DNA of 64,000 nt from Oceanispirochaeta sp. (GTDB lineage Bacteria > Spirochaetota > Spirochaetia > DSM-2461), in contig CAXXOA010000001.1 in NCBI GenBank assembly GCA_963666275.2, positions 32,001-96,000 of the forward strand. Direction: 5' to 3'. A model generated the notes under the pieces. That model was not told the DNA's origin. It saw nothing but the letters and a program-made list of their open reading frames with translations, and did no database searches. The translations under genes and the position numbers were made by a program. Below are positions 22,067 to 48,583 of this stretch, piece after piece (positions within the stretch are counted from its first letter, which is position 1; every line of letters starts with the position of its first letter).

Positions 22067-23152
22067 CTATTTTTTATACAGCCGCAGCTGGGTCTTGTCA
22101 AAACTCAGATAGGCTTTCTCTCCGGGAAGAAAATTGTGCCTGTCCGGCCCTGTATTGGGTTTATGGATATTGAGGAATGATCCGTCGAATTCCACTCTGT
22201 ACTCGGTATGGGAACCCAGAAAGGATTTCACATCCACAACCGCACAGTAATCTCCAGGCTGCCGGCTTATACTGACCGCTTCGGGTTTGATGGAAAGATA
22301 TACCTCTTCGCCTTCATGGAAATACCGGGCGTGTTTTTCGACCTTCAGAACCAGGAGTTTCTCCTGCAGCCTCAGGGATATGCGGTGCCCCTCAATCTCT
22401 TCTATGACGGCTGTGAGAAAGTTGGTGTTCCCTATGAAATCCGCTACAAAAGGGGTAGCCGGAGAGTTGTAGATCTCTTCGGGGGATCCCGACTGAATCA
22501 TCTCTCCCCGGTTCATGACAATGATCCTGTCGGAAAGGCTCAGAGCCTCAGACTGGTCGTGGGTCACATAAATGACTGTGATTCCCAGCATCCTGTGGAC
22601 CCTTTTGATCTCTGTTCTTGTCTGAATCCGCAATTTGACATCCAGGTTGGACAGAGGTTCGTCAAACAGGATGATATGGGGTTTCAGAACCAGGGTTCTG
22701 GCCAGAGCCACCCGCTGCTGCTGTCCTCCCGACAGTTCCGAGGGAAAGCGGTTTTCCAGTCCGACAAGATTCACAACCTGACAGGCCATGGCCACATCGT
22801 TGCGGATCACTTCCCGGGACATCTTTCTGGCCCTCAGACCGTAGGCTATATTTTCGAAAACAGTCATATGGGGGAAGAGGGCGTAGCTCTGAAACACCAT
22901 GGGCATGGACCTTTTGTGAGGGGCCAGGGCGTTTATGTTCCTGCCCTCCAGGAATATCTGACCCTCCGAGGGGGCTTCCAGGCCTGCAATGATCCGCAGT
23001 GCCGTGGTTTTTCCGCTCCCCGAGGGGCCCAGAAGGGTCAGGAATTCCCCTTTCCGGACTTCCAGGTTCAATCTGTCCAGTGCAGATATTTCCTTCTCGG
23101 TACCGGGGAAATATTTTTTACTGATGTCTTTTAAAACAAGATACTCTTTCAT
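22067..23152 (-). CDS. ABC ATP-binding protein (FbpC/AfuC/PotA type), transporter 1
   Basis: GPSGSGKTT, FQSYALFPH, LSGGQQQR, DEPLSNLD; TOBE-like tail. Confidence 0.95.
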   Translation of the reverse strand: MKEYLVLKDISKKYFPGTEKEISALDRLNLEVRKGEFLTLLGPSGSGKTTALRIIAGLEAPSEGQIFLEGRNINALAPHKRSMPMVFQSYALFPHMTVFENIAYGLRARKMSREVIRNDVAMACQVVNLVGLENRFPSELSGGQQQRVALARTLVLKPHIILFDEPLSNLDVKLRIQTRTEIKRVHRMLGITVIYVTHDQSEALSLSDRIIVMNRGEMIQSGSPEEIYNSPATPFVADFIGNTNFLTAVIEEIEGHRISLRLQEKLLVLKVEKHARYFHEGEEVYLSIKPEAVSISRQPGDYCAVVDVKSFLGSHTEYRVEFDGSFLNIHKPNTGPDRHNFLPGEKAYLSFDKTQLRLYKK

Positions 23153-23161
23153 CAGGACTTC

Positions 23162-24826
23162 CTAAAACTGATTTGTGGTCAGGTACAGACCGGTTCTGCC
23201 TCCCCTGATGATCCGGGAGAGGATAAGAACAAACAGAGCTGTAATCACAATAAGGGAAAATGACATGACCGATGCCACTCCCAGGCGCATTATCTCTGTC
23301 TGGGCCAGTATCAGAACCGACATATGATTCCATCGGGCCGATATGAGAAAGATGATGGCACTGATGGCTGTCATACTTCGTATAAACGCGTAGGTGGCCC
23401 CGGCGAAAAAAGCCGGTCTGATCATGGGAATGGTGATCCGCCGGAGAATATAGGCGCTGTTCCCTCCCAGATTGGCCGCGGACTGGTCTATCTCCGGGGA
23501 AATCTGGCTTAACGCGGCGATGCCTCCTTCCACCCCGATGGGGAGATTCCGGAATACATACACAGCAATCAGGATAAAGGCTGTGCCCGAGAGCTTGAAG
23601 GGGCTGTGATTGAAGGCCAGCACATAGCTGATGCCCACCACTGTCCCGGGGATCGCATAGATCAGCAGGGACAGGTACTCGGGGATCCGCTTGCCCGGAA
23701 ATTTACCGTTGCGGCTCAGAAAGGCAATGAAAACCCCGAAAACCGCGGTGACCGGGGTGGAGACCAGCGCCAGGAGCAGGGTGTTCAGGAGGGTTTTGAA
23801 TCCCACATCATAGCTGTAGATAAAATGCTCCAGAGTCAGGGACCAGTCTTCTCCCCAGAGTTTGATAAAACTTCCGGCCATGATGGTTCCGTAGATCAGA
23901 AGGGTCAGGGCTGCCACAAGAGAGCAGAAGAGAAACAGCGCTGTTTTTATCTCTCTGCTCACAATATCACTGCTGTTCCGCCTGAAGTTTCCCGAAACAG
24001 TGACAAAATTCCGTCCTTTCAGTAAGCGCTTCTGAAAGATGAACACTCCCGTGGCGGGGAGTATCATCAGCAGGGCCAGGGCCGTCCCTCTCGTCAGATC
24101 TCCCATTCCCGTAAACTCCAGATAGGCCTGTACGGAGATCACGTTGAAGTCTCCCCCGATAATGATGGGATTGCCGAAATCCGTCAGGGATCCCACGAAT
24201 GTAAGGAGCCAGGAGGCTGTGAGCCCCGGAGTCATCAGTTTCAGGGTGATGGTCCGGAATACCCGCATTTTTCCGGCTCCCAGGTTCAGTCCTGCCGCCT
24301 CCAGATCCGGATTTATGCCCTGAACGATTCCCGAAAGGGTCAGGTAGGAGATGGGAAACAGGCCTATGGTCTGCACCAGCAGCAGCCCCTTCAGGCCGTA
24401 GATCTCCAGGTTGTCCAGGCCGAGCAGCCCCGCGGAGATCAGGCCGTTCCGTCCGAACAGCAGGATCGCCGACAGGGCGAACATGAAGGGCGGGGATATG
24501 AGGGGAAGGATGGCCATGGCCTGAAAAAGGCGCCGTCCCGGGATCAGCGCTTTATGGATCCCGTAGGAAAAAAGGAATCCTGTTATGGTAGCCAGGGTGG
24601 CGGTCAGCCCCCCCAGGAGAAGGCTGTTTGTCATGGCTCTCAGGTTCTGTGACTGATGAAAAACCTCTCTGTAGACGGCCAGACTGAAGTTCTGCCCCTC
24701 ATGTAGGGTGATCCTGACAGCCGAATAGAGAGGATAGAGGATAAAGAGGATCAGCAGCAGAAAGAGAAGGGCTCCTGCCGCCGGAAGGAGCAGATCCCTC
24801 CGGGGGGACCGGAATCTAATTCCCAT
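23162..24826 (-). CDS. Fused ABC permease (FbpB/AfuB type), transporter 1
   Basis: ISPPF, DFGNP and IPGTVVGISY motifs, two EAA-like loops; start probably ATG 24826 overlapping the SBP stop. Confidence 0.9.
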   Translation of the reverse strand: MGIRFRSPRRDLLLPAAGALLFLLLILFILYPLYSAVRITLHEGQNFSLAVYREVFHQSQNLRAMTNSLLLGGLTATLATITGFLFSYGIHKALIPGRRLFQAMAILPLISPPFMFALSAILLFGRNGLISAGLLGLDNLEIYGLKGLLLVQTIGLFPISYLTLSGIVQGINPDLEAAGLNLGAGKMRVFRTITLKLMTPGLTASWLLTFVGSLTDFGNPIIIGGDFNVISVQAYLEFTGMGDLTRGTALALLMILPATGVFIFQKRLLKGRNFVTVSGNFRRNSSDIVSREIKTALFLFCSLVAALTLLIYGTIMAGSFIKLWGEDWSLTLEHFIYSYDVGFKTLLNTLLLALVSTPVTAVFGVFIAFLSRNGKFPGKRIPEYLSLLIYAIPGTVVGISYVLAFNHSPFKLSGTAFILIAVYVFRNLPIGVEGGIAALSQISPEIDQSAANLGGNSAYILRRITIPMIRPAFFAGATYAFIRSMTAISAIIFLISARWNHMSVLILAQTEIMRLGVASVMSFSLIVITALFVLILSRIIRGGRTGLYLTTNQF

Positions 24827-25841
24827 CGCCGGATCCGATCGTTCTGTTCCACCGTTCCACGAGCCTCTGTTTATTGGCGGCGCTCCAAAGGTCATCCTGA
24901 AGAACCACATTCACATCTTCGATGGTAAAGGACTCGGATTCCGAGGGGGTCCTGTGAAAGGGAACCACATAGTGGGAGGCAAAAATTCTGGCCGCAGAAC
25001 CGCCCAGGGCCCAATTGAAGAGGGTCTCCGCCTGGGGCCGTTCACTCTCCGGTCCGTTTTTTATGAGGGATATAGAGGCAATCTCATACCCGGTTCCCTC
25101 CCGGGGAAAGGTTATCACCACAGGATAGCCCTCGTTTTTCAGGTACAGCGCATCATGGGTGTAGCCTATGGCAATGGCCACTTCTCCTATGCTCATATTT
25201 TTTCCCGGAGCCAGGCCGGAACGGGTGTAGTGGGTTATGTTTCTATCCAGTTCCTTCATGTAGGCAAAGGCTTCCTCTTCTCCGTAAATATGGATCAGGG
25301 TGGTGAGGATGCTGAAGGAGGTTCCCGAGGACCCGGGATTGGACATCTGGATATGGTTCCTGTATTCGGGACGGATCAGATCCTCCCAGGAATCCGGCGG
25401 CGACAACCCGTACTGGTCAAGCTTCTCCCTGTTGCTCTCAAAACAGAGCGGGCTGGCGTAGAGGCCCGTCCAGTAGTACTCGGGATCCCGGGAGTAGGGG
25501 AGGTCCGAACCGTTGGGAGAACGGAAAGGTTCGGTGAGCCCCTTGTTTTTGGCTTCTATATGGCCCAGACCGACCCCTCCGATCCAGAGGCTGGCATGGG
25601 GATTGCTCTGCTCCGTCTCCAGACGGGCCACACACTCTCCTGTGGACAGGCGTATCCAGTCCACCTGAATGCCAGTCTCTTTTGTAAAGGCTTTGAAGAG
25701 TTTCCTTGCCAGTTCCTCATCCAGGGTGGTATAGGCTGTGACCCTTTCGGGACGGGAGCAGCCTGAAAGGAAGAGAGTCAGAAGGATCACCGCAGCAAGG
25801 AGATGCCAGGGCCGGAATGCGGATGTCTCAGTATTTCGCAA
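24816..25841 (-). CDS. ABC substrate-binding lipoprotein (AfuA-like), transporter 1
   Basis: Lipobox LSGC; RLSTGE, NPGSSGT, YTHD, EGTGYEI; TTG start. Confidence 0.88.
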   Translation of the reverse strand: MRNTETSAFRPWHLLAAVILLTLFLSGCSRPERVTAYTTLDEELARKLFKAFTKETGIQVDWIRLSTGECVARLETEQSNPHASLWIGGVGLGHIEAKNKGLTEPFRSPNGSDLPYSRDPEYYWTGLYASPLCFESNREKLDQYGLSPPDSWEDLIRPEYRNHIQMSNPGSSGTSFSILTTLIHIYGEEEAFAYMKELDRNITHYTRSGLAPGKNMSIGEVAIAIGYTHDALYLKNEGYPVVITFPREGTGYEIASISLIKNGPESERPQAETLFNWALGGSAARIFASHYVVPFHRTPSESESFTIEDVNVVLQDDLWSAANKQRLVERWNRTIGSGDGN

Positions 25842-26511
25842 GCTTATAGCCTCTCCCTCTTTCGGTCAGAAGATAGACCGGTTCCGACGGGTCGGGTTCG
25901 ATCTTTTTTCTCAGTCGCCGGACATTGACTTTTACCATCTCCCGGCCCCCTTCCCAGTCTTCATACCCCCAGACCTCCCGGAGCAGGACCTGCCAGGACA
26001 TGACCCAGTCGATCTTACGGCCCAGAACTTCGAGGAGCCTGAATTCCATGGGCGTCAGCTTGATCTCCCGGGAAGAGAAAAAGACCTCTTCCCTGTCCGG
26101 ATCGATAGAAAGCTCTCCTGTTCTGATAACAGAGTGCTCTTCCGTATGATAGGAACGGACCAGAAGTTTTTTGACCCGCAGAGTCAGTTCCTTATGGTTG
26201 AAGGGTTTTCTTATGTAGTCTTCCGCACCAATCTCCAGACCCGAGATAACATCGCTGTCCTTGTCCCGGCAGCTGAGGATGATCACAGGAATATGTTCCG
26301 AGATCTTGATCCTGTTGCAGACTTCCAGTCCGTTGATTCCCGGAAGATTGATATCCAGAAGAACCAGGTCCACTTTCTCTTTTCTGAGCAGCGAGAGCCC
26401 GTCTTCTCCCGAAAGAGCCGAAAGGACCCGGTAGCCCTCATCTTTCATGAGAAATTCCAGAATCCGGACCAGATGGAGATCGTCTTCAATGATCAGTATG
26501 GTTTGTTCCAG
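25828..26511 (-). CDS. OmpR/PhoB-family response regulator (probable CTG start)
   Basis: The REC N-terminus TILIIEDD lies upstream of the track ATG 26448; AAAGGAG sits 6 nt before CTG 26511; LLDINLP, KPF and wHTH TERGRGY. Confidence 0.88.
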   Translation of the reverse strand: MEQTILIIEDDLHLVRILEFLMKDEGYRVLSALSGEDGLSLLRKEKVDLVLLDINLPGINGLEVCNRIKISEHIPVIILSCRDKDSDVISGLEIGAEDYIRKPFNHKELTLRVKKLLVRSYHTEEHSVIRTGELSIDPDREEVFFSSREIKLTPMEFRLLEVLGRKIDWVMSWQVLLREVWGYEDWEGGREMVKVNVRRLRKKIEPDPSEPVYLLTERGRGYKLAKY

Positions 26512-27688
26512 AAAAAACTCCTTTGTATCGGGGGAGAGTGAATGATACGGTGGTACCGCTCCCCGGCAGAGAGCTGATATAGACCTCTCCCTTATGCTTT
26601 TTTATGATATCCCTCACAATTGTAAGCCCCAGGCCGGCCCCTTCGTTCTGATCCCGGCCGGGATCGCTGGACTGATAGAACTCGTTGAATACATGGGGTA
26701 TCTCTTTTTTTTCAATCCCGCTGCCCCTGTCGTGAACCGAGACCACCAGGCACTGCTCGTTCTCCTGAAGCTGAACCGTAATTTCAGAACCTTCCGTGCT
26801 GTTCTTGCTGCCGTTATGGATCAGGTTCAGCAGGACCTGTTCCAGCCAGCGGCGGTCTCCCAGTGTCTTTGAAAGGAGAGAGGGATAGTTGTATCTGAGA
26901 GTCTGTTTTTTCGAATCCAGAAAGGGTTTGATGTCGACCGCTGTCTTCCGGATGATTTTTCTCAGATCCAGAGGCTGCCGTTTCATGTCAAACCAGGCGA
27001 ATTCCACCTTTACCTGGGAGAGGATATTCTCCACCAGGTCATTGAGCCTTTTGGTGTTTTCCAGGGAGGAGGAGACAAGGGCCTTCTGGGTACTGTTCAG
27101 CGGCCCCGGTCTCTCTTCCATGACAAGTTCGTTGGAGGTCCGTATGACCGCCAGAGGGGTTCTCAGTTCGTGAGTCAGGGTGGAAAGGAGTTTGTTCTTG
27201 TTGTCCACAAGGTTCTTCATGTATTCATAGGCCCTGCGGGTTTCCTGGGCTTTGATTCCCACCATTTTCACAAGGAGAAAGATGCCTCCCCCCAGGGGGG
27301 GCAGGAAGAGCAGTTCCCTGCAGGTTCCTCTTATCAGAGCCCCTGTTGTCATGGTCAGCACGGCGAAAGAGAGGAAGAGTCCCGTAATCAGCCGGGGACG
27401 CTCGTTAAGAACAAGCTGTACCGCATACAGGCAGAGGAAGGGGAGGAGCAGAAAAGGGGATGTAAAGAGAAGCATCAGGTCCAGCAGGACGAGCTCGGAG
27501 ATCATCAGAACAGGATTTTCAAAAATATGCTCCCGGGAGGAGCTCAGACCGTAGGCATAGAAAAGGACTATCAGGGAGAAGGCCGTACAGATCCCCCATA
27601 ATGCGTGTACCGGCTCCTCTCGGGTGAAAAGATCCATGACCGCTGTCAGGAGTAGCATTAGGGATGTGAATAGTCTTGTTTTTTTCAC
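26486..27688 (-). CDS. Membrane-bound sensor histidine kinase
   Basis: N-terminal TM helices; THELRTPL, NLIHNG, DRGSGI, GAGLGL. Confidence 0.93.
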   Translation of the reverse strand: MKKTRLFTSLMLLLTAVMDLFTREEPVHALWGICTAFSLIVLFYAYGLSSSREHIFENPVLMISELVLLDLMLLFTSPFLLLPFLCLYAVQLVLNERPRLITGLFLSFAVLTMTTGALIRGTCRELLFLPPLGGGIFLLVKMVGIKAQETRRAYEYMKNLVDNKNKLLSTLTHELRTPLAVIRTSNELVMEERPGPLNSTQKALVSSSLENTKRLNDLVENILSQVKVEFAWFDMKRQPLDLRKIIRKTAVDIKPFLDSKKQTLRYNYPSLLSKTLGDRRWLEQVLLNLIHNGSKNSTEGSEITVQLQENEQCLVVSVHDRGSGIEKKEIPHVFNEFYQSSDPGRDQNEGAGLGLTIVRDIIKKHKGEVYISSLPGSGTTVSFTLPRYKGVFSGTNHTDH

Positions 27689-27836: not shown

Positions 27837-27875
27837 GTTACAAAATGGTTACAGTTGCGTAACAGTTCGGTAACA
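27837..27875 (+). promoter_or_regulatory. Four GT(T/A)ACA direct repeats at exact 11-bp period (OmpR/PhoB-type box)
   Basis: GTTACA 27837, GTTACA 27848, GTAACA 27859, GTAACA 27870, in the divergent intergenic region; -10-like TAGAAT at 27919. Confidence 0.72.
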
Positions 27876-27953
27876 ATCCCCGGACTGAGGTTTTCAACTG
27901 CCCGGTCCGGGCTTAGAGTAGAATCATACAAAGACTCAAAGGAGATATCAAAA

Positions 27954-28994
27954 ATGTTAAAAAAATCCCTTCTTCTTGCTGTCGTACTGGTTTCTTGTAC
28001 CGGTATGATCTTTGCAAGCGGTTCTCAGGACGGAGGAGCTGAAGACAAAGGAAGCCTGGTGTTCTATGCGGGACTTCAGGAAGATCACGCTGCCATGATC
28101 GCAGAGGAATTTGAAGCCCAGACAGGCATTAAAACGGAATTCGTCCGTATGAGCAGCGGAGAAATCCTTGCCAGACTGAAAGCGGAAAAAGATAATATGA
28201 CTGCCTCTGTATGGTACGGCGGACCCGTAGACGGTATCGTTGCAGCCAATGAGGAAGGCATCATTGAACCCTATGTTTCTCCCGAAGCTGTGAATATCCG
28301 GGAAGGTTTCAAGGAACCCGGCGGAATCTGGACCGGTATCTATATCGGTTATCTGGGATTCGTCGGAAACAAAGCCATTCTGGAAGAGAAAGGCCTTGAA
28401 ATGCCCACTTCCTGGGCGGACTTTCTGAAACCCGAATACAATCAGGAAATTGTCGTGGCACATCCCGGTTCCTCCGGAACAGCCTATACCATGCTGGCCA
28501 CACTGGTTCAGATGATGGGTGAAGATGAGGCCATGGAATACTTCAAAAAATTCAGTCCCCAGGTACGGCAGTACACCAAATCCGGAACTGCTCCCGGTAG
28601 AATGGCGGGACTGGGCGAAACCACCGTGGGGATCACATTCCTTCACGATGCCATCAAATACAAAAAAGAAGGATATGAGGACATCGTCATTTCTGCTCCC
28701 GCAGAGGGAACCGGATACGAAATCGGCGGTGTTGCCCTTCTGAAAAACGGCCCCGACCAGGAAAATGCCAAGAAATTCATCGACTGGGTTCTGACCAAAG
28801 AGGTTCAGGAAATGGGCAAAACCGTAGGATCCTTCCAGTTCCTTACCAATAAAGATGCCATGCCTCCCGAAGAAGCCATGCCTATCAGAGATACCAAGCT
28901 GATCGACTATGACTTTCAGTGGGCCGGTGAAAACAAAAGACGGCTTGTTGAGCGTTTCAGCCAGGAAACTTCTACAACCGCACCGACTGAATAA
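27954..28994 (+). CDS. ABC substrate-binding protein (AfuA-like), transporter 2
   Basis: ATG 27954 with AAGGAG; signal peptide; RMSSGE, HPGSSGTAY, FLHD, EGTGYEIG. Confidence 0.92.
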   Translation: MLKKSLLLAVVLVSCTGMIFASGSQDGGAEDKGSLVFYAGLQEDHAAMIAEEFEAQTGIKTEFVRMSSGEILARLKAEKDNMTASVWYGGPVDGIVAANEEGIIEPYVSPEAVNIREGFKEPGGIWTGIYIGYLGFVGNKAILEEKGLEMPTSWADFLKPEYNQEIVVAHPGSSGTAYTMLATLVQMMGEDEAMEYFKKFSPQVRQYTKSGTAPGRMAGLGETTVGITFLHDAIKYKKEGYEDIVISAPAEGTGYEIGGVALLKNGPDQENAKKFIDWVLTKEVQEMGKTVGSFQFLTNKDAMPPEEAMPIRDTKLIDYDFQWAGENKRRLVERFSQETSTTAPTE

Positions 28995-29064: not shown

Positions 29065-30765
29065 ATGACCAATACAAAAAGACTGAAGTTCCAGAGTAAT
29101 CTTAAAACACTGATTAATCTTAAAAATGATCCCGCCCTGCTGGCGGTCATTTTGTTTACTCTGGCTCTTGTTACTTTTTTTATACTCATCCCCCTCTACA
29201 ACGTATTGATTGAAAGTTTTACCACCGATTCGGGGAGCACTTTCGGAAATTACAAAGCTGTATTCTCTATGCACGGGAATTTTAAAATCCTCGTCAACAC
29301 AATCATGCTGGGAATCGTCACAGCTGTTATCTCTGTTGTGGTCGGCTTTATTTTTGCCTACGTCACAACCTATATGCGTATCCGTTTCAAGAGGATATTT
29401 GATTTTATAGCTATACTGCCTATTATCTCTCCCCCCTTTGTGGTTGCTCTTTCGGCAATCCTGCTCTTCGGCCGGGTGGGACTGATTACAAGAGGGCTTT
29501 TCGGAATTCGCGATGCTGAAATCTACGGCTTTCACGGACTGGTTCTGGTCCAGTCGCTGAGCTTTTTTCCGATCGCCTATATGATGCTGGTGGCTCTGCT
29601 GCAGCGGATTGATCCCTCTGTGGAGGAAGCCTCCCGGGACCTCGGGGCCTCCCGTTTCCGGGTTTTCACCTCTGTCACACTGCCCCTCATGGTTCCCGGC
29701 CTGGCCAACGCCTTCCTTCTTGTTTTTATCCAGTCCATTGCGGATTTTGCCAACCCCGTTGTTATCGGCGGCAATTTCACAACCGTGGCTGTAAAGATCT
29801 ATCAGGAAGGAATCGGTAATTACCAGTTCGGTATCGCCACGGCTCTGGCCATGATTCTGCTGACCATATCCATTACGATCTTTGTCCTGCAGAAGTATTA
29901 TGTCAGTCAGAAGTCCTATGTGACCGTGACTGGTAAGGTATCCCGTCACAGGGATCTGATCGATTCTCCCCGGATCGTGGTTCCCTCAACGATCATTCTG
30001 CTGATATTCACTGTGTTTGTTATTATGATGTATATCCTGATTCCCATCGGTTCCTTTGTGAAACTCTGGGGAGTCAACTATACACCCACGCTGGAACACT
30101 ACCGCTACGTGTTCAAACCCAAGCTGTTCCAGCCGGTACTGACTACCTCGTCTCTGGCTCTGATCGCCACTCCCGTTTCGGGATTCCTGGCCATGCTGAT
30201 TGCCTTCCTTATTGTGAGAAAGAAATTTTTCGGTAAATCCTTTATAGAGTTTACCACCATCATGGCTCTTGCTATCCCGGGAACCATCATCGGTCTGGGA
30301 TATGTTATAAGCTATAACAAAACCTACGGGATCGGAGGGCTGACAATCATTCCTCCCATTACGGGAACGGCCTTTATCATTATAATGGCCTTTATAATAA
30401 GGAGCCTCCCTGTGGGGGTCCGTTCGGGGATTACCTCGCTGCAGCAGATTGATCCGTCCATTGAGGAAGCGGCCAGTGTCCTGGGAGCCTCCAGCAGGAA
30501 AGTTTTTACAAGCATTACAATTCCCATGATTAAAAATGCCTTTCTCAACGGTCTGATCTTTACATTCGCTCGCAGTATGACTCTGGTCAGTACGGTTATT
30601 TTTCTCATTTCCGCCCGGTACAAGCTTCTGACCACTACCATTATGGCCCAGATTGATGTGGGGAAAATGGGCGTGGCTTCGGCCTACTGTACGATCCTGA
30701 TCATTATTGTCAGCGCTGCCATGCTGATAATCAAACTTCTGGTAAAAAACATCAGTGCCGAGTAA
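29065..30765 (+). CDS. Fused ABC permease, transporter 2
   Basis: ISPPF, EEASRDLGA, DFANP, IPGTIIG, EEAASVLGA. Confidence 0.93.
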   Translation: MTNTKRLKFQSNLKTLINLKNDPALLAVILFTLALVTFFILIPLYNVLIESFTTDSGSTFGNYKAVFSMHGNFKILVNTIMLGIVTAVISVVVGFIFAYVTTYMRIRFKRIFDFIAILPIISPPFVVALSAILLFGRVGLITRGLFGIRDAEIYGFHGLVLVQSLSFFPIAYMMLVALLQRIDPSVEEASRDLGASRFRVFTSVTLPLMVPGLANAFLLVFIQSIADFANPVVIGGNFTTVAVKIYQEGIGNYQFGIATALAMILLTISITIFVLQKYYVSQKSYVTVTGKVSRHRDLIDSPRIVVPSTIILLIFTVFVIMMYILIPIGSFVKLWGVNYTPTLEHYRYVFKPKLFQPVLTTSSLALIATPVSGFLAMLIAFLIVRKKFFGKSFIEFTTIMALAIPGTIIGLGYVISYNKTYGIGGLTIIPPITGTAFIIIMAFIIRSLPVGVRSGITSLQQIDPSIEEAASVLGASSRKVFTSITIPMIKNAFLNGLIFTFARSMTLVSTVIFLISARYKLLTTTIMAQIDVGKMGVASAYCTILIIIVSAAMLIIKLLVKNISAE

Positions 30766-33164: not shown

Positions 33165-33233
33165 TTTACAAACTCATGATTGTGGAAGTATTATCAAAAA
33201 ACACGTGTGTGCAATAATAAAAGCACACGTGTG
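33165..33233 (+). promoter_or_regulatory. Sigma70-type promoter with two CACACGTGTG-type operators
   Basis: TTTACA 33165, TATTAT 33189; AACACGTGTG 33200-33209 and CACACGTGTG 33224-33233. Confidence 0.72.
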
Positions 33234-35039: not shown

Positions 35040-35085
35040 AGTTCTAGAAAAGGTGTATCGTGTGCATCGCAAAAATGGAGGTCTT

Positions 35086-40805: not shown

Positions 40806-40853
40806 TTGACGGATCCTTTTTACCGTAGTACTATTACTTAAACGTTTTAGTAA
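40806..40853 (+). promoter_or_regulatory. Promoter and 20-bp LacI-type operator upstream of LacI-2
   Basis: TTGACG 40806, 17-nt spacer, TACTAT 40829; TTACTTAAACGTTTTAGTAA 40834-40853 with central CG. Confidence 0.78.
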
Positions 40854-40863
40854 TGAGGGTCAA

Positions 40864-41871
40864 TTGAGAGTTACCATAAAGGATATTGCCAGAAAAGCCG
40901 GAGTTTCTCCGGCTGCCGTATCCAAGGCATTGAATGGTCAGCCTGATATAGGAGAGGCCACCAGAGAGAATATCCTGCGCATAAGCAGGGAGCTGGGGTA
41001 CACGCCGAATATGATCGCCAGGAACCTTGTGAAGAAGGGAAATAAAACCGTAGGCGTTCTGATTCCGGATATCTCCACTCCGATCTATCCGGTGATCTAT
41101 AAAGGGATCAACGAAAGGGCCATGGAGTACGGGTATACTCTCTTTCTGGGTGATACAAAAAGGGATCTGGCAAATGAGCGGAAGTATATTGCCACCATGA
41201 TGGAAAACAGAGTGGCAGGACTACTTGTCAGTCCGGTGAGCAATGATATTTCCCATCTTGAGGAGGTTGTACAGAATCAGATACCAGTCATTTATTTCGG
41301 CGGTAAAGTCAATGAATCCATGAATGATTACATTGGTATTGATAATTTGCGGGGAGGAGCTCTGGCAGTTGAACATCTGACAGAACTGGGGCATCAGCGG
41401 ATTACCATGATCTGTGATGACCTGAATACCAGAACCCGGCATGACAGGGTGGAAGGATACAGAAAGGCGATGATCCAACGCGGTCTGACTCCTGATGTCT
41501 TTATCGACGATGAAGGCCTGAAGGGGAGAGAGTGCGGCAGTGCGGCTATCAACAGGATTCTGAAACGGAATCAGAAAGTTCCCACGGCGGTTTTTGCCCT
41601 GAATGACCTGATGGCTATCGGGGTCATGGAAGCTCTCAATACAGCAGGATTGCGGGTTCCCGAAGATATTTCTGTAATGGGTTACGATGATATCCCTTTT
41701 GCATCCCTTCCCATGATCGGTCTATCCACCATCTGGCAGCCCAAGTTTGAGACAGGTGAAATGGCTCTGGAGCAGCTGCATCACAGGATCATCAGAGATA
41801 ACTGGGAGGGGGAGAGACAGGTGGTACTGCAGCCGGAGCTGAGAGTCCGGACATCGACCTGCAGGGTCTGA
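40864..41871 (+). CDS. LacI-family regulator (LacI-2)
   Basis: TTG start; TIKDIARKAGVSPAAVSKALN, ARNL, VPEDISVMGYDD. Confidence 0.95.
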   Translation: MRVTIKDIARKAGVSPAAVSKALNGQPDIGEATRENILRISRELGYTPNMIARNLVKKGNKTVGVLIPDISTPIYPVIYKGINERAMEYGYTLFLGDTKRDLANERKYIATMMENRVAGLLVSPVSNDISHLEEVVQNQIPVIYFGGKVNESMNDYIGIDNLRGGALAVEHLTELGHQRITMICDDLNTRTRHDRVEGYRKAMIQRGLTPDVFIDDEGLKGRECGSAAINRILKRNQKVPTAVFALNDLMAIGVMEALNTAGLRVPEDISVMGYDDIPFASLPMIGLSTIWQPKFETGEMALEQLHHRIIRDNWEGERQVVLQPELRVRTSTCRV

Positions 41872-41887
41872 TATTTTTTTTAATTTG

Positions 41888-41907
41888 TTACTAAAACGTT
41901 TAAGTAT
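41888..41907. promoter_or_regulatory. Second copy of the LacI-2 operator, inverted
   Basis: TTACTAAAACGTTTAAGTAT matches the reverse complement of 40834-40853 at 19 of 20 positions. Confidence 0.78.
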
Positions 41908-41935
41908 ATGTTTAATTTTCCTGAAAGGAGTCCCT

Positions 41936-42628
41936 ATGGGGAAGTATAAGTATGAAATTCACGCCCATACGGCGGAAGTCAGCAGCTGCGGTCATGTAAA
42001 GGCGGCAGATGCTATAGCCCTGTACAAAGAGGCAGGGTATCAGGGCATTGTTTTTACAGATCATTTCAACCGGGAGTATTTTGACAGGCTCGATGGAATG
42101 GGCTGGGAGGAGATGATCGATGCTTTTCTGGAGGGGTACAGAAGTGCCCTGCCGGCGGCGCAGGCCCTTGATATGGATGTTTTCTGGGGAGTGGAACTCC
42201 GCTTTACAGAAAACGATAACGACTATCTGGTTTATGGCCTGGAAGAGGATTTTCTGAAAAGTCTGCCCTTTGTTCACACAACTTCCATAAAGGAGTTTAT
42301 GGAGCAGATCAGCAGCAGACCGGATATCCTTGTCTTTCAGGCTCATCCCTTCAGAGACGGCTGTTCTCTGGTGGATCCTCTGATTGTTGACGGACTGGAA
42401 GTTCATAACGGGAATCCCCGGCATGATTCCAGAGATGCACTGGCCGCGGAAATCGCCAGGGAGAATAACCTTCTTATTCTTTCGGGTTCGGACTTTCACA
42501 GGACGGGAGATCTGGCAACGGGAGGAATCATTTTACCCGAAAGAGTTGCATCCATGGGGGAATTTGTCTCCCGTGTGAAAAAACTGGACTGGGAATCACT
42601 CATAGTAAAGGAACGGGTATGCAGATAA
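41936..42628 (+). CDS. PHP-domain phosphoesterase
   Basis: ATG 41936 with AAGGAG; HAHT, TDH, QAHP, HNGN, GSDFH. Confidence 0.9.
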   Translation: MGKYKYEIHAHTAEVSSCGHVKAADAIALYKEAGYQGIVFTDHFNREYFDRLDGMGWEEMIDAFLEGYRSALPAAQALDMDVFWGVELRFTENDNDYLVYGLEEDFLKSLPFVHTTSIKEFMEQISSRPDILVFQAHPFRDGCSLVDPLIVDGLEVHNGNPRHDSRDALAAEIARENNLLILSGSDFHRTGDLATGGIILPERVASMGEFVSRVKKLDWESLIVKERVCR

Positions 42629-43377
42629 AGACAATTCTTTTTGATATGGGAGGGACCCTGGAGGACATCCATTATTCCGATAATGTCCCCCAGATCATAG
42701 GGAAAAGGATGGAGGAGATCCTTGAAATTCCCTTTGAAAAGATTACGGAGAAAAACGGCACTGATTTTTACAGTCACCTCCAGGGCCGCTATAAAGAGTA
42801 TCGGGATTTCAGGGAGAAAACCTGTATAGAGGTTCATCCCGCCATGGTATGGAAAGACTGGATTCTCAAGGGCCTGCCGGTGCCTGACTCCATTATTTTC
42901 GATAATCATGAAAAGCTGGCCTATTTCTGGGAAACCGAAGTGATCCAGCGCAGATGCCGCACAGAAGCGGTGGAAATGCTGAATGAGATCCGGAAAAGAG
43001 GAATCCGGATGGGAATAATAAGCAATACAGGCAGCTTCACCCAGGTTTACAAATCCCTGGATAAATACGGTATCCGGGATTTCTTTGAAAAAATTGCCCT
43101 TTCCGCAGACTACGGAATCAGAAAGCCTCATGGTTTTCTTTTCCGGGACATTATTAATCAGATGGGATGCGAAGCGGAAAATACACTTTATGTGGGTGAT
43201 ACGGTTTCCCGTGATGTAGTGGGCGCCAGGAACGCCGGACTGTACGGGTCTATTCAGATCTGCTCAGAGTTCACAAAACTGAGTGATCAGGAGCACAGTC
43301 CCGGAATCAAACCCGATTACATCATTCATGATCTGATGAGTATTCCCGAAATCGTGGACCGTATTAATCAGATCTGA
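42619..43377 (+). CDS. HAD-family hydrolase (subfamily IA-like)
   Basis: FDMGGTL, IISNT, RKP, YVGDTVSRDVVGA. Confidence 0.88.
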   Translation: MQIKTILFDMGGTLEDIHYSDNVPQIIGKRMEEILEIPFEKITEKNGTDFYSHLQGRYKEYRDFREKTCIEVHPAMVWKDWILKGLPVPDSIIFDNHEKLAYFWETEVIQRRCRTEAVEMLNEIRKRGIRMGIISNTGSFTQVYKSLDKYGIRDFFEKIALSADYGIRKPHGFLFRDIINQMGCEAENTLYVGDTVSRDVVGARNAGLYGSIQICSEFTKLSDQEHSPGIKPDYIIHDLMSIPEIVDRINQI

Positions 43378-43409: not shown

Positions 43410-45248
43410 ATGGAAAATATAATCCAATCGGCAGTTTATGATAAATGGACAGGCAAAATCCGCTGCTCCATAAACAGAGCTGTCAATTATATACGAGACC
43501 CTCAGAATCTTCTGAGTGTGGTTTCTATCATTCTGCTGATCTATCTTGTGGCTTTTCCCCTCTGGGAAATCTTAAGTACCACATTTCAGCTTCAGTTCCG
43601 GGATTCCATGAAAACAGGCATTCCCGAAGGGTCATTCACGCTGCGCTACTGGGCATCCACCTTTGCCAGCGAAATCAGTAAGGCCATGTTTTACAAACCC
43701 CTGATGAATTCTCTGATGATTTCATTAAGTGTTTCGTTTTTCGGCATTATGATCGGAGGAATACTGGCCTGGCTGGTTTCCAGGACCGACCTGCCCATGA
43801 AGAAATTCTTCTCGTTCATCCTGGTGGTAGCCTATATGGTTCCCTCCTGGTGTAAAGCTCTTGCCTGGCAGGTTATGTTCAAGAACGACAGGATCGGAGG
43901 ACATCCGGGGATGTTTCAGGCCATTACCGGAGTCAGTCTTCCCGACTGGTTCTCCTACGGCTTTGTTCCCATTGTGGTGACCCTGTCGCTGCACTATTTT
44001 GTTTTCTCTTTTCTGCTGATCTCTTCCGCTCTGGCTTCCATCGGGGGAGACCTGGAGGAAATGGCAGAAATTACAGGGGCCAAACGGGGAACCATCCTGA
44101 GGAAAATTACTTTTCCCCTGGTCCTCCCGGCCATTCTGTCCTCATTTATTCTGACTTTTTCAAAAGCCATCGGTTCTTTCGGCGCTCCCGCTTTTCTGGG
44201 GCTGAAAGTAAACTATTACACTCTTTCCACCATGATCTATGCCAATATCAGGAACAGAATGACCACTCAGGCATTCACCCTGGGAATCGTTCTGATGGTT
44301 GTGGCCAGTTTTACTGTCTACCTCAACCAGAAAGCTATCGGTAAAAGGAAGAGTTTTACCACCATCGGCGGAAAAAGCACAAGAAAGAACTTCATCAAGC
44401 TGAAAAAGCTGAAACCGGTGATTACGGCTCTGGTTCTGCTCTTTGTTATTCTCGGAGTGATCATGCCCCTGGTGGTGCTGGTCCTTCAGAGTGTTATGCT
44501 CACCGAAGGAGTCTACAGCCTGGATAATCTGACCCTCCATTTCTGGATAGGCGATGGAAACCCGGCTATTGCCGACGGAGAAGCCGGTATCTTTCATAAT
44601 CCGCGTATATGGAAAGCCCTTTTCAATACCCTGAGGCTTGTCTTTATTGTGTCCATTATAGCAACTGTGGCGGGACTGCTTCTGGGGTATCTCATATCCC
44701 GGGGAAGAAGGAAAATGAGCGGCAGATTTATTGAACAGATCTCTTTTACGCCCATGCTGATTCCCTCTATTGCCCTGAGTACCATTTATCTCTCCATGTT
44801 TTCCAAACCCCAGCTGTTTCTGCCGGTGCTCTACGGAACATTTGCCCTGCTTGTGCTTATCAGTATTGTCAAATATCTGCCCTTTGCGGTCCGTTCCGGA
44901 ACCAGCAGCATGATGCAGATCAATACGGAGCTGGAAGAGGCGGCCAAGATTGAAGGAACCCCCTGGGTGAAAATCTTTTCAAAGCTAATCCTTCCCCTGG
45001 CAAAGGGCGGTGTCTTCAGTGCTTTTCTTCTGATCTTTATCAGCGGAATGAAAGAACTGGCGCTGATTATGCTTCTGGTTACTCCTGAAACAGCCACCCT
45101 TACCACTTTGACCTACGCCTATACAGAGTCGGGGTTTGAGCAGTTTTCCAATGCCATTACTACACTGATCATTTTTATCATTATCACTGTGAACTTTATT
45201 GCTCGGAAAGTGAGCAAAGCGGACATTTCCAAAGGAATAGGAGGTTGA
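43410..45248 (+). CDS. Fused ABC permease, transporter 4
   Basis: LVSRTDLP, LEEMAEITGA, SFGAPAFLG, LEEAAKIEG. Confidence 0.92.
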   Translation: MENIIQSAVYDKWTGKIRCSINRAVNYIRDPQNLLSVVSIILLIYLVAFPLWEILSTTFQLQFRDSMKTGIPEGSFTLRYWASTFASEISKAMFYKPLMNSLMISLSVSFFGIMIGGILAWLVSRTDLPMKKFFSFILVVAYMVPSWCKALAWQVMFKNDRIGGHPGMFQAITGVSLPDWFSYGFVPIVVTLSLHYFVFSFLLISSALASIGGDLEEMAEITGAKRGTILRKITFPLVLPAILSSFILTFSKAIGSFGAPAFLGLKVNYYTLSTMIYANIRNRMTTQAFTLGIVLMVVASFTVYLNQKAIGKRKSFTTIGGKSTRKNFIKLKKLKPVITALVLLFVILGVIMPLVVLVLQSVMLTEGVYSLDNLTLHFWIGDGNPAIADGEAGIFHNPRIWKALFNTLRLVFIVSIIATVAGLLLGYLISRGRRKMSGRFIEQISFTPMLIPSIALSTIYLSMFSKPQLFLPVLYGTFALLVLISIVKYLPFAVRSGTSSMMQINTELEEAAKIEGTPWVKIFSKLILPLAKGGVFSAFLLIFISGMKELALIMLLVTPETATLTTLTYAYTESGFEQFSNAITTLIIFIIITVNFIARKVSKADISKGIGG

Positions 45249-45249
45249 T

Positions 45250-46392
45250 ATGAGCCGGATTGAATTGAATAAGGTAAATAAATTTTATGATAAAGTGCAT
45301 ATCCTCAAAGATGTGGACCTGGTAATAGAACAGGGCGATTTCATGACCCTTCTGGGCCCCTCTGGCTGTGGGAAAACCACCACGCTCCGGGTCATTTCGG
45401 GACTGGAGAATCCCCAGAGCGGGACTGTTGTTATCGACGGTCAGTCTGTGGCTGATCCTGTGACCGGAAAATTCGCCCCTCCCTCCAAAAGGAATCTGAA
45501 TCTTGTTTTTCAGAGCTATGCGCTCTGGCCCCATATGACTGTATTTGACAATGTGGCATTCGGTCTGACAGTTAAAAAAGAGCCAAAAAGTGAAATAAAG
45601 AAAAAAGTCATGGCCGCTCTGGAGAAAATGCAGATAGCCGAGTACGCCGAAAGGTATCCTTCCGAGCTTTCAGGAGGTCAGCAGCAGAGGGTCGCCATTG
45701 CCCGGGCGATCGTTTCCCAGCCCAAGATCCTCCTGCTGGATGAACCTCTTTCCAACCTGGATGCCAAGCTCCGGGTGGATATGAGAGCCGAGCTGAAAAG
45801 GCTGCATAAGGATCTGAAAACCACCATTATCTATGTGACTCACGATCAGGTGGAGGCTCTGACCCTCTCTTCAAAGATTGCTGTTTACTTCGAGGGGGTT
45901 CTTACCCAGTGCAATACCCCGTCGGAAATCTATAACAATCCATCCACCCTCAAGGTGGCGGAGTTTATCGGTAATCCTAAAATCAACTTTATCAAAGGGG
46001 TCGTTAATGACATGGAGAAGGGGCAGCTCAAGGTGAAAAGCTCCTTCGGAGAGATTTCTCTCAAAGATATCGATGCCAGAGACAGTGGGATTGTAAAACT
46101 CTTCAGTGAGAATAATCCGGGATCCGAGGTGACCCTTGCCATCCGTCCAGAGGACATTCTTGTTTCCAGAGAGAAGGCGGAAGGGGCTTTCCCCTGCACA
46201 GTCGTTTCCATTCTGCCCGCCGGATCGGAAACCCTTCTGGAACTGGAAATGGGAGATTCTCTGCTCATGGCCAAAGAGATTGGTCAGCACCGGTATGAAA
46301 TGGGCGATGTCCTGTTTGCCACGTTAAAGCAGGAGAGGATGAATGTGTATGAGAACGGAGAGGGATCCCTGGTGGTTCGTGCCGTTGACTGA
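45250..46392 (+). CDS. ABC ATP-binding protein, transporter 4
   Basis: GPSGCGKTT, FQSYALWPH, LSGGQQQR, DEPLSNLD. Confidence 0.95.
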   Translation: MSRIELNKVNKFYDKVHILKDVDLVIEQGDFMTLLGPSGCGKTTTLRVISGLENPQSGTVVIDGQSVADPVTGKFAPPSKRNLNLVFQSYALWPHMTVFDNVAFGLTVKKEPKSEIKKKVMAALEKMQIAEYAERYPSELSGGQQQRVAIARAIVSQPKILLLDEPLSNLDAKLRVDMRAELKRLHKDLKTTIIYVTHDQVEALTLSSKIAVYFEGVLTQCNTPSEIYNNPSTLKVAEFIGNPKINFIKGVVNDMEKGQLKVKSSFGEISLKDIDARDSGIVKLFSENNPGSEVTLAIRPEDILVSREKAEGAFPCTVVSILPAGSETLLELEMGDSLLMAKEIGQHRYEMGDVLFATLKQERMNVYENGEGSLVVRAVD

Positions 46393-46473: not shown

Positions 46474-47646
46474 ATGTTGAAAATGAGAAAGGTCGGATTT
46501 TTTCTATTTACCGCACTTCTGGTATTGTCTTTTTCCGGATGCAGTAAAAAAGCCGCGGACACTGTTCAGGCCGTCGAAGAAAAAAGTTGGGACGAGCAGG
46601 TCGGTCTGGCCGAAAACCTGAGCACCGAGGAACTGTATGAGAAAGCCAAGGAGGAAGGCACAGTTACAGTTTATTCCATGTCCAGCAGATTCAACGATGT
46701 AAAGGAGACTTTTGAAGCTCAGTATCCCGGGGTCGAAGTTGTCGTTTATGACATGAGAAACTCGGAAATTCTGGAAAAATTCCAGAGAGAGCATGAGGCG
46801 GGCATTAGAAATGCGGATCTTCTTTTTGTGAAAGATACGGATGGCGCCGTGTACAATGAGTTTGTCAGAATGGGACTGCTGAAAGAGTTCGTCCCCCAGG
46901 ATATGATGAAAACCGCCCCTGCCAGTTTTCAGAAAGGCGGCTATGCTCCCTATTTTGAAATGAAGCAGGTGTTCTACAATACCGAAGTCTATGATTCCTG
47001 TCCTATCGACAGCTGGTGGGATCTGACCCGGCCTGAATACAGGGGAAAAATCATACTGAGAAGTCCCATTGAAAACTCTGAAATCATGGGTCTTTTTACA
47101 GCGATTGTGAAAAACAGTGACGAAATGGAACAGGCTTATAAAAAAGAGTTCGGCCAGGACATTGTGCTGAATGACACTAAAAATGCCGGTTTTGAGTTCC
47201 TGAAAAGACTGACAGACAATGACCTTATCGTGATGACCAGTGATACGGACATCGTCGAAGCCGTGGGAACTCCCGGACAGATTGATCCTCCCTTCGGAAT
47301 CGCCACTTCCAGTAAAATGCGGAAAGCCGGTCCCAACCTGATGATCAATGTTGCGGAAGATCTCTCCCCCCGTCTTGGTATTGTCGATCCGGCCTACCTT
47401 TACATCGCCGATCACTCCGAGCACGTGAATGCGGCCAAACTGGTTATGAGATGGGTCGGCGGAGAAGCTGATGGATCCGGAGCCGGATTCAATCCCTTCC
47501 ATGTCAGGGGTTCCTGGCCTTCCAGAGCGGATGTTGAACCTGTTCAGACTCCTGCCCTGGCGTCTCTGAATCTCTGGGATCTGGACCTGGAATACAACTA
47601 CAGCGTTCTGGATGATATGAGAAATTTCTGGATTACCCTGCAGTAA
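46474..47646 (+). CDS. ABC substrate-binding lipoprotein, transporter 4 (different subfamily from SBPs 1-3)
   Basis: Lipobox FSGC; LYEKAKEEGTVTVYS, FEAQYPGV, YNTE, SWWDLT. Confidence 0.88.
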   Translation: MLKMRKVGFFLFTALLVLSFSGCSKKAADTVQAVEEKSWDEQVGLAENLSTEELYEKAKEEGTVTVYSMSSRFNDVKETFEAQYPGVEVVVYDMRNSEILEKFQREHEAGIRNADLLFVKDTDGAVYNEFVRMGLLKEFVPQDMMKTAPASFQKGGYAPYFEMKQVFYNTEVYDSCPIDSWWDLTRPEYRGKIILRSPIENSEIMGLFTAIVKNSDEMEQAYKKEFGQDIVLNDTKNAGFEFLKRLTDNDLIVMTSDTDIVEAVGTPGQIDPPFGIATSSKMRKAGPNLMINVAEDLSPRLGIVDPAYLYIADHSEHVNAAKLVMRWVGGEADGSGAGFNPFHVRGSWPSRADVEPVQTPALASLNLWDLDLEYNYSVLDDMRNFWITLQ

Positions 47647-47704
47647 GTTAAAAAAACGGGACAGCCTGAGTGCAGGCTGTCCTATCTGAAAAGGATATTT
47701 CACA

Positions 47705-48583
47705 ATGCAATATGATATAACTATGATCGGCCATGTCTGCAAGGATACCCTGGAGGATATGGGACAGATCTCCCATAGTCTGGGAGGGGCGGTCTATTAC
47801 TCCTCCATCGCCGCAGCAAGAAGCGGTTCCCGAATCCATGTGGTCACAAAGGCATCCCTTCAGGATGATCTTCTGATGGACGTTATGCGCAAGAATGGCG
47901 TTGAGGTCACACGGCTTGACGACGATAAAACTACCGAAATCAAGCTGATTTATGATTCTCCCGACAGGGAAAGACGGCAGGTCATCCTGGAGCAGCAGGC
48001 CGAACCATTCGCCACAGCGGGATTCCCCGCCTCGGAAAGCAGGATCTATCATATGGCAGGACTGTTCAAAGGGGAAATCCCGGATGATTTTATTCCCTTC
48101 CTCGCCGAGAGGGGAGAGGTGGCCATGGACGTGCAGGGGGTTCTGCGATGCAGTGAAGAGGGAAACCTGGTTTTCCGTAACTGGGAACTGGCCAATGAAT
48201 ACCTTCCCCGGGTTACCTATCTGAAAACCGATGCGGCGGAAGCGGAAATTCTGACAGGCCTGAAAGACAGGGAAGCCGCCGCCCGGGAGCTGGCAGCAAA
48301 GGGTGTGAGGGAAGTGATGATCACCCACAATGAAGAAGTCCTTCTTCTGGCAGAGGGCAAAATGATGAAGGCTCCCTTCAATCCGGCGAACCTTTCGGGA
48401 AGAACCGGTCGGGGAGATACCACCTTTGCGGCCTACCTTTCCAAACGGCTGGAAGCGGGGCCCTATGAATCCCTCTTTTACGCCGCCGCCCTCTGTTCCA
48501 TAAAAATGGAGAGTCCCGGTCCCTATCTGGGAGGGATTTCCGAGGTATACAAACGGATGGAGCAGATAGGATACAGGCAGTAA
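47705..48583 (+). CDS. PfkB/ribokinase-family kinase, PPi-dependent myo-inositol-kinase type (copy B)
   Basis: Paralogue of 39867..40742; KTDAAEA, APFNPANLSGRTGRGD, CSIKME. Confidence 0.85.
   Translation: MQYDITMIGHVCKDTLEDMGQISHSLGGAVYYSSIAAARSGSRIHVVTKASLQDDLLMDVMRKNGVEVTRLDDDKTTEIKLIYDSPDRERRQVILEQQAEPFATAGFPASESRIYHMAGLFKGEIPDDFIPFLAERGEVAMDVQGVLRCSEEGNLVFRNWELANEYLPRVTYLKTDAAEAEILTGLKDREAAARELAAKGVREVMITHNEEVLLLAEGKMMKAPFNPANLSGRTGRGDTTFAAYLSKRLEAGPYESLFYAAALCSIKMESPGPYLGGISEVYKRMEQIGYRQ

Follow-up and report, generated by a model that had tools for sequence, protein, structure and literature searches.

We analysed a 64,000-nucleotide stretch of an Oceanispirochaeta sp. genome (hereafter the window; GCA_963666275.2, contig CAXXOA010000001.1, positions 32,001 to 96,000, G000:C1:32001-96000 in our numbering; genome 5.27 Mb, 3 contigs, completeness 97%), in which a 26.5 kb block at 22067-48583 carries 22 genes for four ATP-binding cassette (ABC) importers, phosphatases, two kinases and their regulators. 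With somewhat more confidence than doubt, we read this block as a system for the substrate-induced acquisition of phosphorylated cyclitols, most likely myo-inositol phosphates derived from phytate (InsP6). The inositol-phosphate theme is the best supported, because two inositol markers, a MINPP-type phosphatase and TM0415-type kinases, are tied together by shared operators, adjacency in multiple genomes, and co-occurrence.

Gene content was taken from open reading frame (ORF) calls with Pfam and NCBIfam scans, which recovered every part listed in a first-pass annotation of this DNA; several start codons were placed by inspection. A histidine kinase, a response regulator, SBP1 (SBP, substrate-binding protein), Perm1 (permease) and ATPase1 lie on the minus strand. 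Divergent from this group, the plus strand carries SBP2-Perm2-ATPase2, LacI1 and MINPP1 (His_Phos_2), followed by SBP3-Perm3-ATPase3-Cof-Kin1, and then LacI2, PHP, HAD-IA, Perm4, ATPase4, SBP4 and Kin2. The boundaries at 22067 and 48583 are sound because both flanks carry unrelated genes (U32 peptidase, Trk genes and a GH3 enzyme upstream; DUF4421, a HEPN/nucleotidyltransferase pair and pyruvate:ferredoxin oxidoreductase downstream).

MINPP1 (33245..34780, plus strand; His_Phos_2, E = 3e-19) is a predicted exported histidine phosphatase that matched BtMinpp of Bacteroides thetaiotaomicron (PDB 4fdt) at E = 2e-37. The match to the Bacteroides MINPP structures spans its full length, and every one of the solved structures closest to it is a MINPP or a bacterial enzyme of phytase type. 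RHGSRSL of MINPP1 aligned to RHGARFP of 4fdt, keeping RHGxR and exchanging Pro for Leu, and its FAHAETV, containing the HAE proton-donor tripeptide, aligned to an identical FAHAETV. An HAE proton donor marks MINPPs, and HD marks classical acid phytases. The pairing of RHGxR with HAE, on which the first-pass annotation had relied, does identify a MINPP-like enzyme here. The probable start is ATG 33383, preceded by AAGGAG, and the N-terminus MKRIILSFALLVLSFSLF is signal-peptide-like as judged by inspection rather than by a predictor. A second gene, MINPP2 (C2:1207648 on contig 2), encodes a protein 50-52% identical to MINPP1.

Kin1 (39867..40742) and Kin2 (47705..48583), both on the plus strand, are PfkB kinases that are 61% identical, and each matched TM0415 of Thermotoga maritima at E = 1e-54; they are the only genes of TM0415 type in the genome. 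According to the available part of PMC5931981, the use of pyrophosphate (PPi) by TM0415 is defined by RXGRGD and the donor residues K171, F221, R229, R232 and M266. The motif is present as GRTGRGD in Kin1, Kin2 and all 17 aligned relatives, and the donor residues are kept at five of five positions in Kin2 and four of five in Kin1 (F221 to Y, also a large aromatic), which upholds the earlier use of this motif as a TM0415 marker. The myo-inositol contacts D11, N78, Q141 and R145 are complete in Kin1, whose acceptor pocket is TM0415-like (SIEN), whereas Kin2 retains three of the four (N78 to L) within an altered pocket (EIKL, CKDTL); P0002 and P0005, the aligned sequences most closely related to it, share the N78 exchange along with other pocket changes. 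Within the same portion of PMC5931981, the sole demonstrated acceptor of this kinase family is myo-inositol, used by three of the five enzymes assayed (TM0415 and homologues 7 and 49). The stop codon of Cof and the start codon of Kin1 overlap by 1 nt, and the kinase is translationally coupled to a phosphatase.

Two predicted operator motifs connect these genes. Motif 1, GCACACGTGTGA, occurs at 35029..35040, downstream of TTTACA-17-TATTAT (the SBP3 promoter), and within 33200..33234, where a copy at 33223-33234 is accompanied by another ACACGTGT core at 33201, shortly after TTTACA-18-TATTAT (the MINPP1 promoter); the two promoters are near copies of each other. On both strands of the whole genome, GCACACGTGTGA was found at three sites versus 0.011 expected (third-order Markov model), the third lying in the promoter of a Na_Pi_cotrans and PhoU gene (a Na/phosphate symporter) on contig 2. 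We relied on this 12-mer and its placement; for the bare 10-mer CACACGTGTG, about 4.6 sites are expected by base composition (hand estimate) and 0.11 by the Markov model. Motif 2, the 16-mer ACTTAAACGTTTTAGT, lies at 40836..40851, directly after TTGACG-17-TACTAT (the LacI2 promoter), and as its reverse complement at 41890..41905, between LacI2 and PHP. Of its three genome-wide sites (0.0001 expected), two precede LacI2 and PHP, and the other lies in the MINPP2 promoter directly after TTGACA-17-TATTAT. Both predicted operators are palindromes with a central CG; every site falls in the promoter region of a functionally linked gene, level with the -10 box or beyond it.

Judging from adjacency, motif 1 would be read by LacI1 (32120..33130, plus strand; LacI and Peripla_BP_3) and motif 2 by LacI2 (40864..41871, plus strand; Pfam). 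Related sites were found upstream of MINPP, SBP3, Kin1, LacI2 or PHP in L008, L009, L010, L094, L095 and L096, with both motifs ahead of MINPP in three of these six relative loci, L095 and L096 among them. Promoter-like sites at 31800-48800 were no more numerous than in shuffles (20 versus 18.9), and the promoter evidence used here is operator placement beside the four best-scoring plus-strand sites only. Control by LacI-type repressors, and not by a Pho box, suggests that the block is induced by its substrate. A further candidate regulatory element consists of four direct repeats GT[TA]ACA[AG] with an 11-nt period (27837..27876, plus strand), located between the divergent histidine-kinase and SBP2 operons. 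The paired repeat pattern appears nowhere else in the 5.27 Mb genome, and the repeats are likely a target of the response regulator. In the MINPP2 promoter (G000:C2:1207314-1207370, L001), the LacI2-type operator is followed about 20 nt on by GCACACGTG, a partial LacI1-type site, which suggests dual control of MINPP2.

We then surveyed 38 genomes at the level of the order, which are relatives of one another. The kinase was present in 11 and MINPP in six; all six MINPP genomes had the kinase, and none of the 27 kinase-less genomes had MINPP (Fisher p = 2e-4, a value that overstates the co-occurrence because related genomes are not independent). Four of the seven MINPP copies in these six genomes adjoin kinase modules, namely those in the window, G015, G009 and G008. 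The order in G015 is MINPP, a 1009-aa ORF and SBP3-Perm3-ATPase3-Cof-Kin1, and that in G009 and G008 is MINPP-LacI2-PHP-HADIA-Perm4-ATPase4-SBP4-Kin2. For the remaining three copies (the contig-2 copy, the G011 copy and one on a 6 kb contig), a module was either not adjacent or not judgeable. The G011 match (G011:C15:31503-32822, L097) contains one in-frame TAA, and may be a pseudogene or reflect a sequencing error. The 1009-aa ORF of G015 (L094:6022-9051, minus strand) has no Pfam match and is flanked by two motif-1 sites, and in this genome MINPP is immediately preceded by a GDPD gene; in L039, an ORF with a GDPD domain borders directly on the kinase.

We also examined 80 kinase loci from Spirochaetota, Clostridia, Atribacterota and other phyla for partner genes within 10 kb; some of the surveyed genomes may equal named records in L007-L086, so the MINPP-copy and 80-locus counts may overlap. 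An AfuA-type SBP accompanied the kinase at 19 loci, an SBP4-type SBP or permease at 11, PHP at 22, at least three tandem HAD-IA genes at 12, and iol genes (at least 45% identity) at eight. The closest named record is L007, a metagenome-assembled genome labelled Oceanispirochaeta sp., whose Kin2 homologue is 86% identical.

Each of the four importers has a fused permease of 558-612 aa with two BPD_transp_1 stretches, and an ATPase with ABC_tran and TOBE_2. Importer 1, on the minus strand, comprises ATPase1 (22067..23152; ABC_tran 4e-34), Perm1 (23162..24910; best NCBIfam match PhnU2, below cut-off) and SBP1 (24816..25841; SBP_bac_6), an AfuA-type lipoprotein with lipobox LSGC that keeps SSGT, HD and EGTGYE. 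The others are on the plus strand. Importer 2 consists of AfuA-type SBP2 (27855..28994, probable start ATG 27954; SBP_bac_6 2e-26; five of five AfuA signature positions kept), Perm2 (29065..30765; Pfam) and ATPase2 (30819..31895; Pfam), with a terminator-like hairpin downstream at 31925-31951. Importer 3 is formed by the AfuA-type lipoprotein SBP3 (35053..36144, probable start 35086; solved-structure matches), Perm3 (36234..37910; Pfam) and ATPase3 (37919..39055; Pfam). Importer 4 contains the divergent Perm4 (43410..45248; Pfam; 21-26% identical to Perm1-3), ATPase4 (45250..46392; Pfam) and SBP4 (46474..47646; Pfam, alignments and fold model), a divergent cluster-D lipoprotein. The GC fraction at 24001-26000, in importer 1, is 0.56 versus 0.475-0.48 for the contigs, and this module may have been acquired separately.

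Among solved structures, SBP3 matched the glucose 6-phosphate (G6P)-binding protein VcA0625 (8x1a) at E = 7e-75, AfuA (4r72) at 9e-71 and the pyridoxal-phosphate binder P5PA at 4e-58, with FbpA proteins at only about 1e-7. With reference residues taken from the available part of PMC4546632, our alignment showed that the sugar-coordinating triad of AfuA (H205, D206, E229) and T150 are retained in SBP1, SBP2 and SBP3, and that the phosphate contact S37 is S in SBP2, T in SBP1 and A in SBP3. The triad was also present in 23 of 24 kinase-linked AfuA-type SBPs. The link to sugar-phosphate import drawn in the first-pass annotation is thus borne out, as SBP1-3 group with AfuA and VcA0625 (E = 1e-71 to 1e-75) and not with FbpA. 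Its accompanying proposal, that different inositol phosphates are imported in parallel, loses ground: the acidic His-Asp-Glu pocket points to a ligand with one phosphate on a hydroxylated ring, and SBP1-3 therefore probably carry singly phosphorylated rings rather than polyphosphates. The sequences suggest as candidates a phytate end product such as Ins(2)P, or hexose phosphates; Ins(2)P is named in the available part of PMC7618129 and would be an end product of histidine-phosphatase action on phytate.

SBP4 is 20-22% identical to SBP1-3 and lacks both the triad and T150. Its family has near-invariant Ser, Lys and Arg residues at loops after beta strands (S71, R72, K120, S279, S280, K281, R283), positions assigned from conservation and the secondary structure of the model rather than from coordinates. 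Genes for SBP4-type proteins are accompanied by PHP, and in Clostridia also by three or four paralogous HAD-IA genes. These features suggest that the SBP4 type, alone among the four, may fit a more highly phosphorylated ligand. The fold model of SBP4 (pLDDT 91.7) gave MctA, IbpS and FbpA proteins as its best structural matches, and an ESM Atlas search returned only unnamed or generic SBP clusters.

Five IolG genes scored above cut-off elsewhere in the genome. G000:C2, at ~1.896 Mb (L005) and ~2.22 Mb (L004), holds both a classical IolG-IolD-IolE cluster and a Thermotoga-type IolM-IolG-IolN-IolO cluster, the latter without a kinase, and three further IolG genes adjoin sugar-type ABC systems and ROK regulators. 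The first-pass annotation had called for such a comparison with Thermotoga, and had taken the lack of iol genes in the window as a hint against catabolism; with two inositol pathways encoded elsewhere, that hint falls away and catabolism of the released inositol is likely. The inositol would then probably serve as a carbon source, besides phosphate as a phosphorus source. A scan of the 97% complete genome gave no match to Inos-1-P_synth, and one IMPase-family gene. Two membrane pyrophosphatases and a PPi-dependent phosphofructokinase (849 bits) are encoded as well, a gene set that makes PPi a predicted working currency of this spirochaete.

From the gene content, family membership, shared operators, synteny and co-occurrence described above, we infer ligands, activities, kinase direction and an order of steps as follows. 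Three regulatory units would make up the system: unit A (LacI1), with exported MINPP1, AfuA-type importer 3 with Cof and Kin1, and the distant Na/phosphate symporter; unit B (LacI2), with PHP, HAD-IA, divergent importer 4, Kin2 and the second exported MINPP on contig 2; and unit C (two-component system), with AfuA-type importers 1 and 2. Periplasmic MINPPs would strip phosphates from InsP6, and the freed phosphate (Pi) would enter through the co-regulated symporter. Singly phosphorylated rings would be taken up by the AfuA-type systems, and more phosphorylated or metal-bound species by importer 4. Cytoplasmic interconversion of the imported species with free inositol would fall to the HAD and PHP phosphatases together with both PPi-linked TM0415-type phosphotransferases, and the free inositol would feed the iol pathways located elsewhere in the genome.

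The direction of the kinases deserves separate consideration. The first-pass annotation assumed that imported products are re-phosphorylated with PPi, and our analysis lends this direction no support. Forward kinase action explains neither the Cof-Kin1 coupling nor the place of TM0415 in an operon that requires free inositol (PMC5931981, available text). By textbook free energies, exchange of phosphate between PPi and a phosphomonoester proceeds near equilibrium, and the PPi-forming reverse reaction is feasible at cellular Pi/PPi ratios. A speculative and, in our estimate, improbable possibility is that TM0415-type enzymes work as phosphorolytic reverse kinases (inositol phosphate + Pi to inositol + PPi). 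If so, the phosphoester energy of scavenged inositol phosphates would be saved as PPi and spent at the PPi-dependent phosphofructokinase and the two membrane pyrophosphatases. Such a reaction would account for a kinase beside phosphatases and importers of phosphorylated compounds, as well as for the free-inositol-requiring operon and poor inositol Km of TM0415; Kin1 and Kin2, with their differing acceptor pockets, would then serve different phosphate positions, and the divergent importer 4 would be the first dedicated bacterial inositol-polyphosphate importer. Alternatively, the kinases might produce an inducer or, in this synthase-less organism, serve inositol-lipid salvage.

Several observations weigh against phytate-derived inositol phosphates as the substrate of the block. 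Histidine acid phosphatases can have broad substrate ranges, and activity on InsP6 is here a prediction. SBP1-3 are 40-50% identical, triad included, to proteins known to bind G6P, fructose 6-phosphate (F6P) or sedoheptulose 7-phosphate (S7P). The structural search with SBP4 did not discriminate ligands, since MctA, IbpS and numerous FbpA, FutA, AfuA and PotD entries fell within two orders of magnitude of E. No MINPP lay within 10 kb of the kinase at any of the 80 loci, and with MINPP in only six of the 38 genomes, most kinase modules run without a phytase of their own. All of the partner genes were absent from 29 of the 80 loci (12 of these 29 are under 8 kb); some of the 29 had another ABC permease type, a GDPD protein, a HAD protein, a phosphoglucomutase or an MFS carrier as neighbours. 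The joint purpose of a phosphatase and a kinase in one operon is not obvious. AfuA rejects glucose 1-phosphate, in which the phosphate is on the ring as in inositol phosphates (PMC4546632, in the part available), and no mention of inositol phosphates turned up in that part of the paper. For TM0415, the Km for myo-inositol is 12 mM; its authors question inositol as the true acceptor, and two of four homologues were inactive on all 14 acceptors (both from the available text of PMC5931981).

The main rival explanation, which we consider rather unlikely, is hexose- or heptose-phosphate scavenging, with importers 1-3 as AfuABC orthologues for G6P, F6P and S7P, the phosphatase as a general periplasmic acid phosphatase like Agp or AppA, and the kinases and phosphatases acting on a non-inositol sugar or polyol. 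The SBP3 matches to VcA0625 and AfuA fit this proposal, and by retaining H205, D206, E229 and T150, SBP1-3 would count as AfuA homologues under the filter of the AfuA authors (PMC4546632, available part). Cof resembles sugar phosphatases, and phosphoglucomutase and aldolase flank the kinase in two loci. However, G6P and F6P need neither phosphatase nor kinase once imported, and the solved relatives nearest to MINPP1 are MINPPs or phytase-type enzymes. The sole shown acceptor of the kinase family, the iol genes at eight of 80 kinase loci, and the confinement of MINPP to kinase-bearing genomes across the order likewise speak against this rival.

Two further readings follow from automated names, and we reject both. 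Ferric iron or metal-chelate uptake is very improbable. In JGI annotation, SBP4 homologues carry the name "iron(III) transport system substrate-binding protein", the solved structures most similar to SBP3 were deposited as components of Fe3+ transport, and the SBP4 model best matches the metal-citrate binder MctA, IbpS and FbpA proteins; the expectation in the first-pass annotation that the block would be auto-annotated as iron transport was correct to this extent, whereas the NCBI names are generic. An FbpA identity for SBP3 was rejected on sequence kinship (about 1e-7 versus 1e-71 for AfuA; iron ligands were not mapped residue by residue), a difference that holds for SBP1-3. At its near-invariant loop positions the SBP4 family has Ser, Lys and Arg, not the Tyr/His/Glu set (based on secondary structure), and LacI-type control with phosphatase and kinase partners does not suit an iron system. 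Uptake of 2-aminoethylphosphonate, for which PhnS2, PhnU2 and PhnT2 were the top NCBIfam matches of modules 1-3, is scarcely credible, as the scores are far under the curated cut-offs (e.g., SBPs at 199-244 bits versus 393), and family scans of the locus gave no PhnW, PhnX or C-P lyase match.

Returning to inositol-phosphate acquisition, we compared the block with known systems. It resembles AfuABC of Actinobacillus pleuropneumoniae and Citrobacter rodentium, and VcA0625 of Vibrio cholerae (PDB 4r72-75, 8x1a; PMC4546632, available part), in combining a cluster-D SBP, fused permease and ATPase, in belonging to a family misnamed as iron transporters, in the conserved AfuA residues of SBP1-3, and in having a two-component system beside the transporter, as in OI-20 of enterohaemorrhagic Escherichia coli (EHEC). 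It differs in having three paralogues (36-46% identical) and a fourth divergent system, in its lipoprotein SBPs, in co-regulation with an exported MINPP and co-transcription with a phosphatase and a PPi-type kinase, and in the proposed ligand, which would be an inositol monophosphate rather than G6P. TM0415 (IolK), the PPi-dependent myo-inositol 1-kinase (PDB 1vk4, 5ysp; PMC5931981, available part), shares with the kinases described here RXGRGD, the donor residues, DxxE in place of NXXE, the catalytic Asp and, in Kin1, the inositol-contacting residues. In contrast, our kinases lie outside an iolM-N-G-O operon, beside importers and phosphatases; Kin2 and its closest aligned relatives have an altered pocket (N78 to L), and the lid segment is D[RK]E[RK]R in 15 of 17 aligned kinases versus DPDTR in TM0415.

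MINPP1 is, like BtMinpp and the Bifidobacterium MINPPs (PDB 4fdt, 6rxd), a branch-2 histidine phosphatase with RHGxR and HAE, and exported (here predicted); it is distant (E = 2e-37), its RHGSRSL lacks the Pro, it shares LacI-type operators with importers, and it has a paralogue in the same genome. The phytate pathway of Mitsuokella jalaludinii (PMC7618129, available part) similarly begins with a periplasmic phytase followed by inositol catabolism, with Pi uptake co-induced, whereas in that model free inositol is imported, and neither an importer of phosphorylated products nor a kinase is described. MctA (PDB 7f6e), the top structural match of the SBP4 model (E = 9e-17, TM 0.68-0.77), binds a metal-bound polyanion; the identity is 17%, and the likeness is a lead only because dozens of cluster-D SBPs score nearly as well.

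In our literature search, no publication turned up that described a bacterial SBP or importer for inositol phosphates or phytate, and the available parts of a 2025 review (PMC12482443) and of the Mitsuokella study (PMC7618129) showed neither a bacterial inositol-phosphate importer nor an inositol kinase. Plants store organic phosphorus mainly as phytate, which also makes up a large pool in soils and sediments, and current bacterial models stop at an exported phytase with uptake of free inositol and Pi. The locus offers four candidate importers and a regulon with two predicted operators, as well as a physiological setting for TM0415-type PPi kinases, whose substrate and role were left open by their discoverers. 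It also indicates that proteins labelled as iron(III) transport by some pipelines can sit in organophosphate-handling neighbourhoods. Similar LacI-PHP-kinase-multi-HAD modules in gut Clostridia (Oscillibacter, Dysosmobacter) may bear on dietary phytate turnover in animals. In gut and rumen Clostridia (Oscillibacter, Dysosmobacter, Lachnospiraceae), three to four tandem HAD-IA genes were seen in L056-L058, L062, L064, L066, L071, L074, L076, L080, L084 and L086; they lie opposite a LacI-PHP-kinase unit in 10 of these 12 loci, and an IolG-like gene is near in four.

The remaining genes of the block are phosphatases and regulators. The plus strand encodes a Cof-type HAD-IIB phosphatase (39061..39867; Hydrolase_3 1e-68, TIGR00099 206.7 bits versus a 137-bit cut-off), a PHP-domain phosphoesterase (41885..42628, probable start 41936; PHP and PHP_C) and a HAD-IA phosphatase (42619..43377; Pfam, NCBIfam). 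Among solved structures the PHP protein had no close relative (best 3e0f, E = 0.026), and the relatives of the HAD-IA protein were generic only. Downstream of the block, a DUF4421 protein of a predicted outer-membrane family (48762-49790, minus strand) converges on Kin2 and is followed by the nucleotidyltransferase/HEPN pair (50031-50710, plus strand); DUF4421 is not adjacent to the locus in L007. The two-component system, on the minus strand, consists of a membrane histidine kinase (26486..27688; HisKA and HATPase_c; PhoR/CreC/PnpS-like, far below cut-offs) and an OmpR-type response regulator (25828..26448; Response_reg and Trans_reg_C). The listed ORF of the response regulator begins inside the receiver domain, and the upstream frame is open through TILIIEDD, a layout repeated in L007; because this open frame contains no ATG, GTG or TTG, the real start is a rarer codon upstream.

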